A stretch of DNA of 32,000 nucleotides from Candidatus Minimicrobia sp. QA0096 (GCF_963967315.1 NZ_OZ017288.1:657352-689351); one strand, 5' to 3'; counted from the stretch's first letter, positions 2,124 through 8,700 are shown. Notes: generated from the letters alone by a model not told the origin. Numbers and translations are program-made.

Positions 2124-2380
2124 TGCGAGTAGTTGTGATTTATCGTTCGGAAAGCGATTATGAGCGCCAAGTTGCAGACTTTTTGCGTGATTTTAGTCGA
2201 CAAACTGGTCGGGTTTTAGAGGAAATGAGTCCTGATTCTGCAGAAGGTAATAATTTTTGCGAAGTGTATGACATTGTGGAGTATCCAACAATTATCGCGT
2301 TGAGCGACAGCGGTCAACTGCAAAACCTTTGGCGCGGATTACCATTACCAACAATTAGCGAAGTGAGTTTTTATGTTTAA
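2123..2380 (+). CDS. Small thioredoxin/NrdH-glutaredoxin-fold protein without a CxxC motif
   Basis: 85 aa. MRVVVIYRSESDYERQV...VEYPTIIAL...WRGLP follows the beta1 / (CxxC position) / alpha1 ... cis-Pro strand layout of NrdH/Trx proteins, with SDYE where CxxC would be. The start overlaps the nrdR stop (TAATG) and the 3' end overlaps the VKOR start by 8 nt. Confidence 0.45.
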   Translation: MRVVVIYRSESDYERQVADFLRDFSRQTGRVLEEMSPDSAEGNNFCEVYDIVEYPTIIALSDSGQLQNLWRGLPLPTISEVSFYV

Positions 2381-2981
2381 TAAAATCAAAAACTGGATAT
2401 TTCACGAAGACTTGAAAAAGCAAAATTTGGCGGCGTTTATAATGCTTCTCGGTAGTGGATTAGGGTTATTGGCGTCATTTGTATTATCTATTGAAGCTTT
2501 AGAATTAGCAAAAAATTCTCATGCTGTATTAAGTTGCGATTTTAGCTCGGCTCTGAGCTGTTCGGCGGTGGCGAATCATTGGTCGGCGGCTATTTTAGGA
2601 TTTCCAAATAGTTTCATCGGCGTGATGACCCTGCCTGTTATGGTAACAATTGCAGTGGCGTTGTTGGCGGGAGCAAAGTTTCCGAAGTGGTTTATGCAGG
2701 CAGCGCAGGCTGGTGCTATTATTGGAATGATATTTGCTATTTGGATGTTTTATATGAGCTATATTGAAATTGGCGTGCTTTGTCCGTGGTGCTTGACCTT
2801 GGATCTTGGAATGCTGATGATTATGTTCGGTTTGACGCGTTATAATGTTCTACAGAAAAATATTTCTTGTCGATATATGCAGAAGATTGTTGGCGGCGGA
2901 TATGATGTGCTTGTCGTGGTGTCGCTGGTCGTCGCGGTAATTGTCGCGATAATCGCCAAATTCGGCAGTCAATTGTTATAA
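2373..2981 (+). CDS. Vitamin K epoxide reductase (VKOR) family membrane thiol oxidoreductase
   Basis: Multi-TM protein with a loop cysteine pair CDFSSALSC (CX7C, as in VKOR) and a membrane-embedded CPWC active-site motif in the last helix bundle. Confidence 0.8.
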   Translation: MFNKIKNWIFHEDLKKQNLAAFIMLLGSGLGLLASFVLSIEALELAKNSHAVLSCDFSSALSCSAVANHWSAAILGFPNSFIGVMTLPVMVTIAVALLAGAKFPKWFMQAAQAGAIIGMIFAIWMFYMSYIEIGVLCPWCLTLDLGMLMIMFGLTRYNVLQKNISCRYMQKIVGGGYDVLVVVSLVVAVIVAIIAKFGSQLL

Positions 2982-3063
2982 CTGTGTGCTTATTTGCTTG
3001 CTTTATTTAAAGTGCTTATGGTATATTTATGATGTATATTTATGTTCAATTTATACCACCACT

Positions 3064-5484
3064 ATGAAACATAATAGACCGCTATCAATAATAAAAGACC
3101 GTAAAGCCAAGAGATTTTTTGCCCTTGGCAGTTTTATTGTCGTTAGTGTAGCCTTAGGGTTTATGTTTTTGAATTCTCAGCAAAGTCGTGCGACTATTCC
3201 TAGTAGTGGCAAGCAGATTGAAGTGGGGCAAGTTTCTTATCGATTATACGAATCTTCCAATGGTGTTAATCCAGGCAGTCCGCTTGCAAATACCAACATC
3301 GCTGCCACGTTACCAAAAGTCGGTGCCGATTTTCGACTGAGAGTTGGTCTGCAAAATAAGAGTGCATATTTTAAAAAATTAGCTGAATACGGAAGCGGGT
3401 ATGAACATAGCTGCGCCATTATGTCGGATGATAGTGCTTATTGTTGGGGTAATGGTCAGTATGGAGCTCTTGGTACTAATTCAACCACCTCATCAACAAC
3501 CCCAGTGCCTGTATATACACAAGACGTGCTTAACGGTAAGACTATAAAACAGATTACTACTGGTTATTATCACACTTGCGTAATTACTTCTGACAATAAA
3601 GACTATTGTTGGGGCTCTGGTGCAGTTGGAAGACTAGGAAATGGTGGCATAATTCAGCGCAACGCTCCATATCCAGTTAGAGAGACCACGACTACAGTCA
3701 TCTCTCAGATTGCCGCGGGTAATGAGCATACTTGTTCGCTTAACTCGGAGGGAAAATTGCACTGTTGGGGTAGAGGCATAAATGGAGAATTAGGTCGTGA
3801 CGTATTCCTAGCTTCATACACGCCAGCAGCGGTTAATATGAATAACTTTGGAACGGAATCGGTTAAGCAGGTTGTGTCAGGGGATAGATTCACGTGCGCT
3901 TCGACGGTCGAAGGTACAGCATTCTGCTGGGGGTATAATGCTACAGGAAGGACTGGAGTAGGGAGTGTTGCTGGTAGAACTCAATATCCCACTAAAGTCA
4001 AAGGTTTTAATGGGAAAAAAGTTGAGTCAATATCTGCTGGCGATTCGCATGCCTGTGCTGTTATTTCTGGCGGTCAAGAAGTGTATTGTTGGGGAAGAAA
4101 TCACAATGGTCAGTTGGGTAACACAGCATCTGGCTATAGAAATACTGCTTCAAGAGCTTCTTTTGGAAGTAGCATTCTTTCTGGAGGGAAGACTATTAAA
4201 AATGTTTACGCTGGCGGCGAATTTACGTGTATGGTATTAAACACTGGCGAAATTTATTGTTGGGGTGATAACTCTAAGGGTCAAATGGGCAGTGGAACTG
4301 CCACAGGATTTTTGCCCTCTCCCGTAAAAGTGAATGTTCCATTTACGAGTTCTGGTGAAACTTCCATGTATTTAGGTAAAGACTTTTTATGCGCTTTACG
4401 TACGGGCGAGATGTATTGTTGGGGTAATAATAACAAGGGGCAGGTAGGGAATGGCCAGTCGAGTAATAGTCCTGTCACGCGCCCTACGCTAATTGCGCCT
4501 CCAGGAGGAGCCGTTGAATCTTCATCAATGAAGCTGCGTGTCGAATACGCAAAAAAGGGTAGCGCGGCAACTTGTTCGGCTGTAAGTAGTTCAGATTGGC
4601 AAGTCGTGACCGGAGTATCAAAACTTGCTTATTCTGTGGGTGGTCCTGCTGACGGCACTAATATCAATAGTAACTCGACTGATCCAGAATTGCCGTCAGG
4701 AGCTATCGCTTCTCGACCTCAAAGTCTGGTGAGAAAAAGCGGAGTGGCTGGAACGTTCACGAATGTGCAAAAAATATCTGCTGGCGAAGTGGGTGTGTGG
4801 GATTTGGCGCTTGTCGATAAAGGGCTTGATAGGAACGAAAATTATTGTGTCCGCGTAGCAACTGACACAACTGCCGCTCCTGGATCTAGTATTGATAGCT
4901 ACACAATGTATCCAGAATTTAAGACCGCTCCTGGGTCGTTAGATATTCGTTTTAGGGATAATGCTGGCGCTACAATTGCAGATACTGGTACGAGGTTTGA
5001 TAATTCCATGATGAGTAGCAGCAGTGTAGCCACCAGCGCTCTCTTGTCCAACTCAAGCTCGAAGCAAATTGAAGTTACGAATACACAGACCATCTCTGGG
5101 TGGAGTGTTGTGTTGTCGGCATCTGACGGCGCGACCGCCAAATGGAAGCGAACTGCTGGCACAGAATCGTATATGTTCAACGGCACTAATGGCGATCAGG
5201 GATTTCTGTCTGTCAATTTTGGCACATCATCCGTCTTAGCTTCGGGTAGTTCATTGAGCGGGTCAACTTGCCAAATATCAGGAATATCAAAGGGCGTTGA
5301 TTCTCAATTTAAGGTAGGGACTGCTACGGCTAACGGCGTTACATTGATGAGTAGCAGCGGGTCAACTGGTCAATTGGGGTGCGCATTTTTGCTACAGAAC
5401 GTTCGATTAAACCAGACTATTCCGGCATATCAAAAACCAGGAGCTTATGAATTGCCAATGACATTAACAGTAACAGCGCAATAG
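3064..5484 (+). CDS. Exported surface protein: N-terminal signal/anchor, 7-bladed RCC1-repeat beta-propeller, beta-sandwich region and C-terminal WxL-like domain (CscC-like)
   Basis: Start placed at ATG 3064 (MKHNRPLSIIKDRKAKRFFALGSFIVVSVALGF...). The 26 codons upstream in the ORF track are AT-rich promoter-like sequence. There are seven repeats ending (Y/H/F)CWG.(N/G)..G(Q/E/A/R)(L/M/V/T)G. The last ~185 aa are paralogous to the 214-aa protein at 6251-6895. Confidence 0.85.
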   Translation: MKHNRPLSIIKDRKAKRFFALGSFIVVSVALGFMFLNSQQSRATIPSSGKQIEVGQVSYRLYESSNGVNPGSPLANTNIAATLPKVGADFRLRVGLQNKSAYFKKLAEYGSGYEHSCAIMSDDSAYCWGNGQYGALGTNSTTSSTTPVPVYTQDVLNGKTIKQITTGYYHTCVITSDNKDYCWGSGAVGRLGNGGIIQRNAPYPVRETTTTVISQIAAGNEHTCSLNSEGKLHCWGRGINGELGRDVFLASYTPAAVNMNNFGTESVKQVVSGDRFTCASTVEGTAFCWGYNATGRTGVGSVAGRTQYPTKVKGFNGKKVESISAGDSHACAVISGGQEVYCWGRNHNGQLGNTASGYRNTASRASFGSSILSGGKTIKNVYAGGEFTCMVLNTGEIYCWGDNSKGQMGSGTATGFLPSPVKVNVPFTSSGETSMYLGKDFLCALRTGEMYCWGNNNKGQVGNGQSSNSPVTRPTLIAPPGGAVESSSMKLRVEYAKKGSAATCSAVSSSDWQVVTGVSKLAYSVGGPADGTNINSNSTDPELPSGAIASRPQSLVRKSGVAGTFTNVQKISAGEVGVWDLALVDKGLDRNENYCVRVATDTTAAPGSSIDSYTMYPEFKTAPGSLDIRFRDNAGATIADTGTRFDNSMMSSSSVATSALLSNSSSKQIEVTNTQTISGWSVVLSASDGATAKWKRTAGTESYMFNGTNGDQGFLSVNFGTSSVLASGSSLSGSTCQISGISKGVDSQFKVGTATANGVTLMSSSGSTGQLGCAFLLQNVRLNQTIPAYQKPGAYELPMTLTVTAQ

Positions 5485-5492
5485 GGTTGAGT

Positions 5493-6200
5493 ATGAAAAA
5501 TAGAGTAAAAAAATTATTCATCGTCATAACATTACTAATCGCTCTGAGTAGTCCTTATTCGGCTTTTGCAGATTCGTCGGCTAATTCTAATTTGTCACAA
5601 GTGATTACTGATTGCGCTCGCGATTCTCTGGAAACAGGTAGCCAGATGAATGAGTCAATTTGTCCGATTTTTCCGTCAAAATTCTCTAAGTTTGATTTGG
5701 TAAATGGGAAAGACCTGTTGGTATATGGCGTTTATGATGCGGTCCATACGGTGGTTAATCCCGCTACAGGTCAGCACGATTTGAAGGTTGAGTTTGGTGG
5801 TCGAACTTTTGTTTTAGGGCGTAATCGTGAGCTTAAAGTTAAGGGAAATATATGGATGCTGGATTTTTCAAATTGGCAGAATAATCATCCAGGCGACAAT
5901 TTTATACCGTCAACTCCAGAATACACCCATAACGGTCGTGTTACAGCTAAACTTAAGGCTAATGCAACATCTCCAGAAGTAGTGCGGTTTGCTGATTTTT
6001 CATTTACTACTCCGAAAAAGACCGTGGAAAAGACCATTGAAGATGTTATTGTTATTCCAAAGATTGTTAAAGAGATAAGTAAGGCTTTGGCTAATACGGG
6101 AATTAATTTATGGATGATTATGGCTGCTGGTATTGGTGTAATTGTTGCGGCGTTCATTATGTTATTTATTGTTAAAAAACAGAAAAAGAGGGATGAATGA
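5493..6200 (+). CDS. Small secreted protein with a C-terminal LAxTG-type sortase sorting signal (CscD-like)
   Basis: Signal peptide MKNRVKKLFIVITLLIALSSPYSAFA. The C-terminus is LANTG (nt 6087-6101), then a 24-residue hydrophobic stretch, then KKQKKRDE. The start could also be TTG 5487. Confidence 0.7.
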   Translation: MKNRVKKLFIVITLLIALSSPYSAFADSSANSNLSQVITDCARDSLETGSQMNESICPIFPSKFSKFDLVNGKDLLVYGVYDAVHTVVNPATGQHDLKVEFGGRTFVLGRNRELKVKGNIWMLDFSNWQNNHPGDNFIPSTPEYTHNGRVTAKLKANATSPEVVRFADFSFTTPKKTVEKTIEDVIVIPKIVKEISKALANTGINLWMIMAAGIGVIVAAFIMLFIVKKQKKRDE

Positions 6201-6250
6201 AAAAATAAGCATAATAAGTTATAATGTAATAAATTAAGTAAGGAGAAAAA

Positions 6251-6895
6251 ATGAAAAAGTTAACGTTGTTGATCGTTGCGAGCGTAGGCGTAGTTGGTCT
6301 ATTGGGATTGTATAATATGACAAACTCTTCTGTAGCTAATGCCGCAACTACTGCTAACTCTAAACTCTCTCAGACAATTAATCCTGGAGTTTTGAGTACT
6401 GATATCCGTGATTCAACGAATTCCTTAGTTAATAATCCAACATTCGCTATGGGCGCTACGACAGTGTCATCTTCATTAGGATCGGGAACTGGTGTTTTTG
6501 GGAATAACGACAATCGAATTTATGCCGAAAACCCAGGTGCCGCAGATAATGGCTGGACGTTGACACTAAACGTAGCGATTCCAGGAACTGGTGTTTGGTC
6601 TGCAGGCGGTGGAAAACAGTATAAATACAATGGAACCATTAACGAAGGTCGCCTAACAGTTAATCCAGCTGGCGGTACGGTAACTCCTGTAATTGGTGCA
6701 GCTGCAGGTATTACCAAGGGTACTTCTACGACCTTTTCTGGTACTAGCCCCGTAACACTAATGAGCGCTTCAGCGACTGCTAGTAAAGTATGGGCTGGAT
6801 ATATAACTAATACCTCATTAGCCCAAACCATCCCAGCTGGTCAGGCAGCAGGTACATACGTATTGCCAATGGTTCAAACGATTACGGCTCTTTAG
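6251..6895 (+). CDS. Small secreted WxL-like domain protein (CscB-like)
   Basis: SD AAGGAG lies upstream. Signal peptide ends ...SSVANA. Contains an internal GWTLTLN motif and a terminal QTIPAGQAAGTYVLPMVQTITAL. It is collinear with the C-terminal domain of the RCC1 protein. A strong terminator follows. Confidence 0.7.
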   Translation: MKKLTLLIVASVGVVGLLGLYNMTNSSVANAATTANSKLSQTINPGVLSTDIRDSTNSLVNNPTFAMGATTVSSSLGSGTGVFGNNDNRIYAENPGAADNGWTLTLNVAIPGTGVWSAGGGKQYKYNGTINEGRLTVNPAGGTVTPVIGAAAGITKGTSTTFSGTSPVTLMSASATASKVWAGYITNTSLAQTIPAGQAAGTYVLPMVQTITAL

Positions 6896-6915
6896 CGGAC
6901 TTAAATTGTTAAACG

Positions 6916-6949
6916 AGAATAGACATTCTGATGAGTGTCTATTCTTTTA
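6916..6949 (+). terminator. Rho-independent terminator after the small WxL-like gene
   Basis: AGAATAGACA (6916-6925) pairs perfectly with TGTCTATTCT (6936-6945): 10 bp with a 10-nt loop, followed by TTTTAT. Confidence 0.75.
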
Positions 6950-6959
6950 TGTGTGACAT

Positions 6960-6968
6960 TGATATAAT
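6960..6968 (+). promoter_or_regulatory. Extended -10 box TGATATAAT for the DUF916-like gene
   Basis: TGATATAAT lies at 6960-6968, directly after the terminator and about 18 nt before SD AAGGAGG. Confidence 0.45.
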
Positions 6969-6995
6969 AAGCATAATGGGTTTTTAAGGAGGAAT

Positions 6996-7985
6996 ATGAA
7001 GAATTTATTGTGGAGTAAGGCTATTGGAGCGGCGATGATTGCAGGGTTGATTCTACCTGTGTCGGTGTCTGCTAATGGTATTGGTGGTCGACCAGCAAAT
7101 CCTGATCCGAATAATCCCAGGACAAGCTCAATTTTCATATATAATCTTTCTGGTGGCGCTTCGAAATCTGACCAATTGTATGTTCAAAACGGGTCTGATA
7201 AAGAAGAAACGATTGAAGTTTATTCGGTTGACGGCACGGTTACGACGACTGGTGATATGACTTGCAAAGAGAAGTCGGAGGATAAAGTTGGTGCGGGCAA
7301 ATGGGTTTCTGTCTCTAAAAAAGAGGTGACTCTTGGCGCGAATGAGAACACGCTTGTTGATTTTACGGTAAATGTTCCAAGCAAAGCAGATGTTGGCGAG
7401 CATAATGCATGCATGGTTGTTCAGCGGAAGGCTAATCAGGCGTCAAATAATGCTGGTGGCATTCAAGTCCAGACTCGTCAGGCTATCCGTATGGCGATAA
7501 CCGTTCCTGGCGATATTCACCGTGACGTGACGATTGAGAAGTTTAATATTAAGAATTCTAACAGTAGTCAATTGTATGAAATTGCCTTAAAAAACTCTGG
7601 CAATGTGTCGGCTGATGTTGACGTAAAGCTGGTCGTGAAAGACCCGATGGGGAATGTTGTCTATAAAAACGGTGGTGTGAATGCAACGATTGCGAATGAA
7701 ACGCGGCAGTTTAATTATGATAGTAATTTGGCGCCGTTTTGGGGCGGAAAATATAAGGTAGAGTTGTCGATTTCCTATAAAAAGAAGGCTGGCGAGTGGG
7801 GGATTAGCCAGGACAAAAATGAGCTAATCACCAAAACCGCCGAATCAAAAGAATTGTTCTTCTGGCCATCAACTACAGCGCTAATGATGATTGGCGGTGG
7901 AATACTTTTGTTCATTATCTTGATAGTGATAATTGTAATAAAATCAAAACGGAACAAAAAAACTGTTCAATTTAAAAAACGTTGA
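6996..7985 (+). CDS. Membrane-anchored surface protein resembling DUF916/DUF3324 WxL-interacting proteins (CscA-like)
   Basis: SD AAGGAGG lies upstream and the protein has a signal peptide. PANPDPNNPRTSSIFIYNLSGGASKSDQLYVQNGSDKEETIEVYSVDGTVTTTGDM fits the DUF916 pattern as I remember it (P.NQ...YFDL..PG..Q.L.V.L.N.S.KE..V.V....T...G). There is a second beta-rich module. The C-terminus has a TM helix plus the basic tail KSKRNKKTVQFKKR, with no LPXTG. Confidence 0.6.
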   Translation: MKNLLWSKAIGAAMIAGLILPVSVSANGIGGRPANPDPNNPRTSSIFIYNLSGGASKSDQLYVQNGSDKEETIEVYSVDGTVTTTGDMTCKEKSEDKVGAGKWVSVSKKEVTLGANENTLVDFTVNVPSKADVGEHNACMVVQRKANQASNNAGGIQVQTRQAIRMAITVPGDIHRDVTIEKFNIKNSNSSQLYEIALKNSGNVSADVDVKLVVKDPMGNVVYKNGGVNATIANETRQFNYDSNLAPFWGGKYKVELSISYKKKAGEWGISQDKNELITKTAESKELFFWPSTTALMMIGGGILLFIILIVIIVIKSKRNKKTVQFKKR

Positions 7986-8013: not shown

Positions 8014-8700
8014 ATGAAGAAAAGTTCTTTGATTAGAGCGTTTTTGAGCATTGTAGTCGTGGCGCTCGGCGGGGTTTTGCTATTGAAGAACCTCGATATT
8101 ATCAACATTAGCTGGGATATTTTCTGGGGTACGGTTTGGGCTGCAGGATTTGTATTGTCTGGGCTGGTGAATATATTCAATTATCGAAATAAAACGGCGT
8201 GGATTTGGGGATTATTACTAGTCGCTATTGGCGTTCTGATTGGCTTAAATTCCTACGGAATAGTTGATGTTAGTATCTGGAAGGTATTCTGGCCTGTAGT
8301 TTTGATTGCTGCTGGTTTGGCAATGATGTTTAATACTAGCCCTAAGGGTGTTAAGCGTTCTAAAAAGTTGGATAAAGACGGCGCAGGTAATGAGAAAATT
8401 GCTTGTTTTTGGGGCGAAGAAGACGCTGTAAAGGGTGATTATACTGGCGGTTCGTTGGTTGCGATATTTGGTGGCGTGGATTTGGATTTGCGTCAAGCAA
8501 AGATTAAAGACGGTTCTGTAATTGAAATTTTTACATTTTGCGGTGGCGTTAATATTACTTTGCCAGACGATGTAATTATCGAGAACGAAGTGCGCGGATT
8601 TTTGGGCGGAACTGATGATAAAACTCTACCTAAAGATTCTGCCAAAAAGACTCTATGCCTGAAGGGTGAGTGTATTTTAGGCGGTCTGGAAATTAAATAA
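8014..8700 (+). CDS. LiaF-like membrane protein (N-terminal TM bundle plus LiaF C-terminal-like domain)
   Basis: Has 4-5 TM segments, followed by FGGVDLDLRQAKIKDGSVIEIFTFCGGVNITLPDDVIIENEVRGFLGG. This resembles the repetitive beta C-terminal domain of LiaF/DUF2154 proteins. Confidence 0.55.
   Translation: MKKSSLIRAFLSIVVVALGGVLLLKNLDIINISWDIFWGTVWAAGFVLSGLVNIFNYRNKTAWIWGLLLVAIGVLIGLNSYGIVDVSIWKVFWPVVLIAAGLAMMFNTSPKGVKRSKKLDKDGAGNEKIACFWGEEDAVKGDYTGGSLVAIFGGVDLDLRQAKIKDGSVIEIFTFCGGVNITLPDDVIIENEVRGFLGGTDDKTLPKDSAKKTLCLKGECILGGLEIK

Follow-up and report, generated by a model that had tools for sequence, protein, structure and literature searches.

A likely WxL/WxLIP-type surface cluster, highly divergent and headed by an RCC1 propeller protein, in Saccharibacteria

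The 32-kb stretch of DNA analyzed here (NZ_OZ017288.1:657352-689351, hereafter the window) holds at 3064-7985 a cluster of four consecutive open reading frames (ORFs), P1 to P4, which all lie on the + strand, are separated by gaps of 8 nt (P1-P2), 50 nt (P2-P3), and 100 nt (P3-P4), and encode exported proteins, an arrangement that an earlier note had read from the sequence and that the ORF map confirms. The cluster is preceded upstream by ftsZ, nrdR, a short ORF, and a gene of the VKOR family and is followed downstream by a gene for a LiaF-like membrane protein and ileS. By sequence, the source matches Candidatus Nanosynbacter, an oral lineage of TM7/Saccharibacteria: Nanosynbacter sp. TM7-076 has a protein with 100% identity to P3, and several Nanosynbacter genomes share the genes flanking the cluster at 97 to 100% identity. 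The guess in the earlier note that this is a reduced, candidate phyla radiation (CPR)-type genome was therefore correct. We consider it likely that the locus is a highly divergent surface cluster of the type formed by WxL proteins and a WxL-interacting protein (WxLIP), and that it presents the RCC1 propeller of P1. The features are as follows.

2373..2981, + strand: gene for a VKOR-family thiol oxidoreductase (PF07884, 106.9 bits), a context gene.
3064..5484, + strand: P1, the "large" protein, 806 aa from its ATG (ORF; Pfam RCC1 families).
3361..4506, + strand: RCC1 beta-propeller head of P1, residues ~100-481 (PF25390, PF00415, PF13540).
4927..5484, + strand: C-terminal WxL-like domain of P1, residues 622-806 (BLASTP to P3; family hidden Markov models [HMMs]).
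5493..6200, + strand: P2, sortase substrate, 235 aa (TIGR01167); an alternative TTG start lies at 5487.
6197..6225, + strand: promoter-like site, ATGAAA-17-TATAAT, just 5' of P3 (consensus match, 10/12).
6251..6895, + strand: P3, the "small" protein, 214 aa (ORF; family search; AlphaFold2 [AF2] model; hhalign).
6915..6946, + strand: hairpin with a perfect 14-bp stem just 3' of P3, a terminator/attenuator candidate.
6996..7985, + strand: P4, WxLIP homolog, 329 aa (PF06030; phmmer; Foldseek; hhalign).
8014..8700, + strand: gene for a LiaF-like membrane protein (PF18917, PF22570, PF09922), context only.

P4 consists of a signal peptide, a DUF916/PGBD immunoglobulin (Ig)-like domain, a second Ig-like domain, and a C-terminal transmembrane (TM) helix with a basic tail (...MMIGGGILLFIILIVIIVIKSKRNKK). 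It scores 34.5 bits against PF06030 (WxLIP_PGBD, formerly DUF916), for which the gathering score is 27.3, and the same model matches all 24 aligned P4 relatives (best E value, 8.6e-14). A phmmer search of PDB sequences found EfmWxLIP1 (9i25_C, 9i1y) with an E value of 3.3e-6 over residues 27-273, covering both domains. The AF2 model of P4, with a predicted local distance difference test (pLDDT) value of 86.6, shows a helix at residues 293-327, and its top Foldseek match is again 9i25_C, the WxLIP of Enterococcus faecium locus A in complex with a long WxL protein (E = 7.6e-14, 276 columns); 9i1y is also among the top matches. Likewise, hhalign aligned the P4 family to a Paenibacillus DUF916/DUF3324 protein at an E value of 3e-16, spanning both domains. 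The HBD model PF11797 did not match P4; it matched 2 of the 24 relatives at an E value of ~0.002. By Pfam, phmmer, and Foldseek, P4 is a true WxLIP, which confirms the resemblance to DUF916/DUF3324 WxL-interacting proteins that the earlier note had seen in its N-terminal pattern.

In distant Saccharibacteria (L083, L085, L091, and L093), the TM helix and basic tail of the WxLIP-like protein are followed by a LysM domain (P0122, P0132, P0150, P0165, P0177, and others; alignment A5, columns 340-430). In the standard N-out/C-in topology, a LysM domain behind the TM helix would place a peptidoglycan-binding module in the cytoplasm, which calls for a second look at the topology or at what the "TM" helix does. 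Hassan and Williamson likewise doubted that the WxLIP helix is located in the bacterial membrane.

P3 is made up of a signal peptide and one beta-rich WxL-like domain (pLDDT of the AF2 model, 87.9), which retains W102-T-L104 and ends in ...YVLPMVQTITAL. The last ~185 residues of P1 are a paralog of mature P3, as had been proposed earlier: BLASTP aligns the two with 29% identity over 183 aa (E = 7e-15), and family HMMs match this part of P1 at E values of 1.9e-26 (P3-family HMM, residues ~633-806) and 4.2e-32. The ordered blocks that had been listed as common to P1 and P3 proved to be real conserved columns in a 38-sequence family alignment. W102-T103-L104 is nearly invariant, follows R89...N94-P95-G, and aligns to DDRGNGxGW of Paenibacillus and GSGNGWRI of Bacillus. 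Besides 79 close homologs of P3, 766 clusters at 50% identity carry the domain (family profile, E <= 1e-3). In small proteins, the mature part consists of this domain alone, and in large ones, the domain stands at the extreme C terminus; 220 of the 222 complete domains finish within one residue of the protein end, and 216 finish exactly at the last residue. Seventy-four of the 222 sit in proteins of at least 300 aa, with widely differing heads in front of the domain (Laminin_G_3, DUF2341, DUF4082, an SdiA-regulated propeller, PATR, beta-helix, BNR, and Ig domains). Domain-bearing proteins also exist outside the cluster, as seen in another Saccharibacterium, where a lone 385-aa protein encoded between rplU and parA (L095, 1295-2452) combines a DUF4082 head, an L-x-Q-x-L strand motif, and a C-terminal WxL-like domain.

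For comparison, WxL clusters were collected from plasmids with WxLIP sequences as bait. The best sequence bridge to P3 is the small WxL protein of pXO1-type plasmids of Bacillus anthracis and Bacillus cereus (WP_001212544.1), which is a PF13731 member at 50.7 bits. Although the Pfam model misses the P3 domain, the P3-family profile aligns to this bona fide WxL protein by hhalign with a probability of 88.2% and an E value of 3e-6 over 135 columns, which bears out the similarity to WxL domains that the earlier note had suspected; BLASTP of P3 against the same protein gives an E value of 4e-4. Both proteins have a GW-x-[IL] motif, a VT(I/L)(L/M)SA block, and a replaced second Trp, and the mature N terminus of the B. 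anthracis protein, ATTADTKLNQSITGG, is nearly the same as that of P3, ATTANSKLSQTINPG. They differ in that the B. anthracis protein passes the Pfam WxL model while P3 does not, and in its location in a plasmid region with Flp/Tad-type genes. On the pXO1-type plasmids of B. anthracis and B. cereus (L102 and L106), the WxL/WxLIP cluster adjoins Flp-type pilin-like genes, with three tandem Flp-type proteins of 67 to 68 aa, a CpaF/VirB11 ATPase, and a prepilin-peptidase-like membrane protein as neighbors.

A second line of comparison leads to Paenibacillus. A profile of 210 family domains gave a collinear local alignment with 19 Paenibacillus WxL proteins at the first motif (score, 29.9; E = 1e-3), and this score topped all 240 shuffles, of which 120 permuted single columns (mean, 12.5) and 120 permuted blocks (maximum, 25.3). 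A separate collinear alignment of the family with Paenibacillus over the C-terminal block had an E value of 0.008. The hhalign comparisons of the family with single small proteins of Paenibacillus and Clavibacter (E values of 0.26 and 0.7) are too weak alone. No WxL chain was found in PDB sequences with the P3-family profile or a Paenibacillus WxL profile, a pseudo-consensus WxL query aimed at the WxL chain of 9i25 hit nothing but noise, the NCBIfam scan of P3 for WxL returned nothing, and a locus close to E. faecium locus A (L107) was too frameshifted to supply a long WxL sequence. Some proteins that pass the Pfam model also lack the second Trp, namely, those of Bacillus, which end in ...LTYSIVTGP, and of Paenibacillus, which end in (FTTTAT) ...AGTYRSTFTTTATSGI. 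Given that the second Trp is missing from true WxL proteins of these genera, its loss does not exclude membership; the earlier note was right that the distal Trp is replaced, but this replacement is not special to the family. We conclude that P3 and the C-terminal domain of P1 represent a divergent WxL subfamily that is missed by current models.

Unannotated secreted proteins of ~210 aa are encoded directly 5' of DUF916 genes on actinobacterial plasmids, in Clavibacter (L082, 5095-5721) and in Cellulosimicrobium (L089, 5055-5699), where large LamG or GH43 proteins are their neighbors. The ~210-aa proteins probably form a further WxL-like subfamily that has gone unrecognized, in the phylum that hosts Saccharibacteria.

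P1 comprises an N-terminal signal or anchor helix, a 7-bladed RCC1 propeller, a middle domain, and the C-terminal WxL-like domain. The Pfam scan found seven RCC1 repeats (PF25390, 261 bits, E = 2.7e-77), and PF00415 (177.6 bits) and PF13540 (182.6 bits) each match seven stretches above the Pfam thresholds. As judged from their position and even number, the 18 cysteines of P1 fall into nine sequential pairs, seven of which provide one pair per RCC1 blade, the other two being C504/C595 and C736/C773. The cysteines of the exported proteins are even-numbered also in P2 (two) and in P4 (two, invariant). Together with the VKOR (DsbB-like) gene directly upstream, these even numbers suggest a local coupling to disulfide formation, and VKOR is a possible oxidative-folding partner of the cysteine-paired exported proteins.

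The RCC1 head is variable, with identities of 30 to 96% between strains compared with 95 to 100% for the flanking genes. When positions 2373-4926 of the window are compared with L001, L003, L004-L009, and L020, at least three allele classes of the head appear (~88 to 96%, 68 to 71%, and 30 to 42% identity) among strains in which ftsZ, nrdR, P3, P4, and ileS are 97 to 100% identical. P3 itself occurs in two allele classes (96 to 100% and 67 to 72%) where the C-terminal domain of P1, P2, and P4 stay at 89 to 98% (comparison with L019-L036). L003 is the sole locus with a divergent head that extends to VKOR; its identity to the window is 57% in VKOR, 35% in the RCC1 head, and 55% in the middle domain of P1, against 97 to 100% in the flanks. 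Judging from these identities, VKOR and the RCC1 head look like a swapped cassette, exchanged by recombination or driven apart by diversifying selection.

In P2, a signal peptide is followed by the mature N terminus (...SNLSQVITDC), a body of ~150 aa, LANTG, a hydrophobic stretch, and a basic tail. That LANTG, the hydrophobic stretch, and the terminal KKQKKRDE mark a sortase substrate, as had been read earlier, is confirmed by TIGR01167 (17.7 bits; cutoff, 15.9 bits), and the EF2685/EF0750 family model NF053819 matches P2 weakly. Leaving aside truncated or frameshifted copies, the LA(N/S)TG signal is kept in every P2 ortholog; in L091, which is more distantly related, it reads LADTG. Class E sortases prefer LAxTG as their motif. 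The intact orthologs also all keep an N-terminal S-x-[LF]-S-Q-x-I motif. This motif is common to the mature N termini of P2 (SSANSNLSQVITDC, residues 28-36, 5574-5600) and P3 (TTANSKLSQTINPG, residues 35-43, 6353-6379); ~80% of the small family members have it, whereas most large proteins, including P1, do not. Accordingly, the L-x-Q-x-I strand motif at the N terminus of the small proteins is missing from the C-terminal domain of P1.

The complete set of four occurs in 71 of the 80 related genome loci, and the other nine are contigs that end early. Such a grouping is far from what chance would give, and the co-occurrence of the four genes holds, with a permuted order in distant Saccharibacteria. 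VKOR lies 5' wherever the locus extends that far, and the LiaF-like gene lies 3' in most loci. In distant Saccharibacteria, the order is small protein, DUF916 plus LysM protein, RCC1-containing large protein, and then an LAxTG or TM-anchored protein, and these loci keep the chromosomal place ftsA-ftsZ-nrdR-x-VKOR ... ileS. The presence of an RCC1-containing large protein at the same place in such distant relatives indicates that the RCC1 head is old in the locus. Other relatives have the small protein, the DUF916 plus LysM protein, and a large protein without RCC1; one of them (L083) has a PF04203 sortase gene nearby. An extra small paralog, ~50% identical to P3, lies between P3 and P4 in three loci (L007, 1853-2503; L010, 8435-9085; L013, 8764-9414), a layout of two small proteins plus one large protein that resembles some Firmicutes WxL clusters. 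A few kilobases 3' of the cluster, a distant Saccharibacterium encodes a second RCC1-repeat protein (L093/L094, 20212-21185).

Between the genes, the promoter-like site at 6197..6225 is the best consensus match of the region; the number of such sites is not above that in shuffled sequences, and the site is a lead only. The hairpin that follows P3 has strong counterparts of differing sequence at the same position in all six folded loci of the Nanosynbacter group (L003, L021, L033, L037, L053, and L077). In more distant loci, the sequence after the small gene differs, yet a stable hairpin followed by a U-rich stretch is again present. The sequence data are consistent with a conserved terminator or attenuator that would set the expression of P3 above that of P4.

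WxL clusters have been described as combining a small and a large WxL protein, a DUF916-DUF3324-TM protein, and often an LPxTG protein, and >91% of the known WxL sequences are from Firmicutes (PMC9772566, PMC10599100). Hassan, Chaudhuri, and Williamson (2023) define a WxL cluster as a minimum of one WxLIP plus two WxL proteins within four genes, and P1, P3, and P4 make up such a cluster provided that the divergent domain is accepted as WxL. The Bacillota clusters that we compared (E. faecium loci A to C, Enterococcus faecalis Elr, Lactobacillus plantarum csc, and Listeria) have the same parts list, that is, a small protein consisting of the domain alone, a large one that has the domain at its very end after an adhesin-type head, a DUF916 protein with two Ig-like domains and a C-terminal TM helix, and a small sortase substrate, and the homologies of P1 to P4 thus bear out the WxL/Csc-type list of components given in the earlier note. 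Three regions run collinear with Bacillota WxL proteins: the first W-x-L motif, the G-x-L strand region toward the N terminus, and the AG-x-Y...T block toward the C terminus. In contrast to the Bacillota, the domain does not reach the Pfam WxL model in any member scanned, another residue stands in place of the second Trp, and LAxTG substitutes for LPxTG; moreover, the organism belongs to the CPR/Saccharibacteria, relatives have a LysM domain fused behind the TM helix, and the cluster is chromosomally fixed beside ftsZ/VKOR.

An RCC1 protein on a WxL anchor is not unprecedented, contrary to what the earlier note had supposed. A plasmid of Paenibacillus urinalis (NZ_CP118110) encodes a WxLIP homolog, a small WxL protein, and a large RCC1-repeat protein that ends in a WxL domain, so that this combination is not unique to Saccharibacteria. 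Like the P3 family, the P. urinalis WxL proteins are without the second Trp; the cluster has no annotated LPXTG gene, and the small-protein profiles match weakly (hhalign E values of 0.008 to 0.001). A special kinship between the RCC1 head of P1 and that of its Paenibacillus counterpart was considered and rejected, as their likeness is generic repeat similarity (BLASTP E = 5e-6 over 72 aa). Also set aside was a histidine-brace/copper link, from a paper that mentions DUF916, which is irrelevant to P1-P4.

The claim that nothing of the kind is described in CPR genomes needs correction. We found no paper text joining WxL or DUF916 with Saccharibacteria, but hints already exist in the form of NCBI protein names ("DUF916 domain-containing protein" in Saccharibacteria) and of a supplementary structure-annotation table for Southlakia epibionticum that lists WxL, DUF916, and LPXTG matches for SEML1_0625-0627. 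According to that table, SEML1_0628 has two RCC1 propellers, SEML1_0627 has a "WxL domain-containing protein" as its best AFDB match (TM-score, 0.85) and e6fjyB1, which is CsuE, as its ECOD assignment, SEML1_0626 is DUF916, and SEML1_0625 is LPXTG-like. SEML1_0623-0628 is the probable Southlakia counterpart of the cluster, placed elsewhere in the genome. SEML1_0623, 0624, and 0628, together with the second RCC1-repeat protein of L093/L094, make RCC1 propellers appear as a recurrent surface module in the phylum. The locus is therefore a phylum-wide variant of a known WxL system, and its novelty is smaller than the earlier note claimed.

From the homology of the parts, their architecture, and the conservation of the cluster, we infer complex formation, wall binding, and adhesion along the following lines. 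With the enterococcal system and the 9i25 structure as models, one would expect P4 to sit in the membrane by its TM helix and to bind the WxL-like domains of P1 and P3. P1 and P3 would thus be held at the envelope through their C-terminal WxL-like beta-sandwich, by P4 and probably also by the wall, whereas P2 would be joined covalently to peptidoglycan by a sortase acting on its LAxTG signal. The complex would then turn to the outside, as a head that binds ligands, the RCC1 propeller of P1, which is rich in disulfides and varies between strains; the most likely ligand would be a glycan or protein on the surface of the actinobacterial host, or one from the oral environment.

That the RCC1 head is a host-attachment module is plausible, given its variability between strains and the precedent of PilX2 of Nanosynbacter lyticus TM7x. 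Like P1, PilX2, which comes from a closely related organism, has a 7-bladed RCC1 propeller, in its case an exposed one, and its deletion halves host binding (PMC11623550). The two differ in setting: PilX2 belongs to a pilin locus (TM7x_02975-02995) and has a pilin-like N terminus, while P1 has a WxL-like C-terminal anchor and a WxLIP and an LAxTG protein as neighbors. We rejected the identity of P1 with PilX2 on locus composition and GAST content (36.4% in PilX2, 41.4% in P1), not on sequence.

Several observations weigh against a WxL/WxLIP-type cluster that serves attachment. PF13731 finds no match in P1 or P3 at E <= 1 (gathering threshold, 25 bits), none in 38 family members at E <= 10, and none in 50 large members at E <= 0.001. 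The family is missing the second Trp-x-Leu motif near the C terminus, where it has Y-T-[LI]-x-M-T-[LQ]-T-V-T-A-x. Foldseek comparison of the P3 model with the PDB yielded no match at E <= 0.001 (best E value, 0.02), and the WxL chain of 9i25 is outside the top 50 matches. No TLxTC sortase signature is present in the 32-kb window. Finally, in transposon sequencing (Tn-seq) of Southlakia in coculture, SEML1_0623-0628 were nonessential, and disruption of SEML1_0625 even conferred a growth advantage. An indispensable role in epibiotic growth is therefore unlikely, and the role would rather be an accessory one, in host range, early binding, competition, or environmental adhesion.

A different mechanism of assembly, which would refine the WxL/WxLIP reading rather than replace it, is that the proteins form a donor-strand fiber of the chaperone type. 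P4 would then be a membrane chaperone like PapD or PamC, and P3 a shaft subunit that polymerizes by inserting its N-terminal strand into the groove of the next; P1, which is without the strand, would be the RCC1 tip adhesin, and the strand of P2 would plug the base, which sortase would fix to the wall. After the WxLIPs, the next bacterial matches of the P4 model are indeed CsuC (E = 1.1e-8), CfaA, EcpB, Caf1M, FimC, and CupB2; the chaperone-usher chaperones as a group match at E values of 1e-8 to 2e-6 with target TM-scores of 0.5 to 0.58, a fold resemblance only, and the two-domain Ig-like fold is common enough that RbmA and CEP192 match P4 too. The best matches of the P3 model are CsuA/B (probability, 0.97), FimA, Caf1, and CanA, in line with the assignment of the Southlakia small protein to the CsuE entry in ECOD, but none of these P3 matches reaches significance. 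More specific to such a fiber are the N-terminal motif common to mature P2 and P3 and missing from most large proteins, P1 among them, and its position in a few two-domain proteins between head and C-terminal domain, reminiscent of a Pam-type linker strand. The domain is strictly protein-terminal, a trait also of chaperone-usher subunits, where the chaperone clamps the carboxylate at the C terminus, and the gene for the small subunit has a hairpin behind it, which pilus operons show as well. In Firmicutes, LPXTG partners and small WxL proteins begin with similar strands of alternating hydrophobicity, and an AF2 prediction has a WxLIP strand completing the WxL sandwich (PMC10599100), although published work on WxL proteins describes peptidoglycan-bound complexes and not fibers.

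The closest precedent for a fiber of this kind in the phylum would be the Pam pili of Candidatus Mycosynbacter amalyticus (Troman et al. 2026 preprint, bioRxiv 10.64898/2026.03.03.709456), which are built by donor-strand exchange with PapD-like chaperones that have a C-terminal TM helix. Their components are exported by Sec, with no usher or outer membrane; PamC/D are, like P4, two-domain Ig-like proteins with a C-terminal TM helix, and the subunits have a conserved C-terminal Ig-like domain after a conserved strand. This likeness of P1-P4 to the Pam system is by description, and WxL, DUF916, and RCC1 are unmentioned in the Pam paper. Pam pilins are two-domain proteins of 39 to 55 kDa, and the pam operon has ATP synthase, CorB, and MFS genes as its neighbors; on this genomic context we rejected the idea that the locus is the pam operon, and the same difference counts against a donor-strand fiber here. 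Taken together, the chaperone-like P4, the pilin-like P3, the P2/P3 motif, the hairpin, and the Pam pili make donor-strand assembly worth testing, even if we regard it as rather unlikely. Slightly bolder, and for us likewise rather unlikely, is the extension that WxL clusters in general are usherless donor-strand systems that have their mechanism, and perhaps their ancestry, in common with chaperone-usher and Pam pili.

Two further explanations concern function. The cluster might be a housekeeping structure of the envelope or division machinery, its fixed place between ftsA-ftsZ-nrdR-VKOR and LiaF-ileS reflecting coregulation with wall growth. The retention of this chromosomal position from Nanosynbacter to distant Saccharibacteria, the LiaF-like envelope-stress protein as 3' neighbor, and the addition of LysM to the WxLIP-like protein in relatives would all fit. 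We nonetheless hold it to be quite improbable, because the identities of the head (30 to 96%) and of the small subunit (67 to 100%), set against 95 to 100% in the flanks, are typical of exposed, diversifying molecules, and because the probable Southlakia counterpart is both elsewhere in the genome and nonessential. Least probable in our view, to the point of being very hard to credit, is a carbohydrate-utilization complex in the sense of the csc hypothesis (Siezen 2006), which would capture or degrade plant or host polysaccharides for uptake. Some actinobacterial DUF916 clusters do have sugar ABC transporters and GH43 or LamG proteins as neighbors, a Laminin_G_3 or DUF4082 head is sometimes found on large proteins in the CPR family, and RCC1 propellers can resemble lectins (PMC11623550). 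In the window and in relatives, however, the surroundings of the cluster contain no gene for a glycosidase, a sugar transporter, or a regulator, the neighbors being ftsZ, nrdR, VKOR, the LiaF-like gene, and ileS, and the head is a nonenzymatic propeller.

In conclusion, a likely WxL/WxLIP-type cluster with an RCC1 propeller bears on how Saccharibacteria, which live attached to Actinobacteria, recognize and hold their hosts, a process that type IV pili explain in part. Its placement among WxL/WxLIP systems opens the structural and experimental knowledge gained in enterococci and lactobacilli to the biology of the CPR. The strain-variable RCC1 head, swapping with VKOR, is a candidate determinant of host range or niche specificity. 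Furthermore, the likeness of the WxLIP to the chaperone fold, together with the strand of P2 and P3, suggests a link between the WxL complexes of Gram-positive bacteria and donor-strand pili; if donor-strand assembly were to hold, the epibiont would carry a short, strain-variable attachment fiber.

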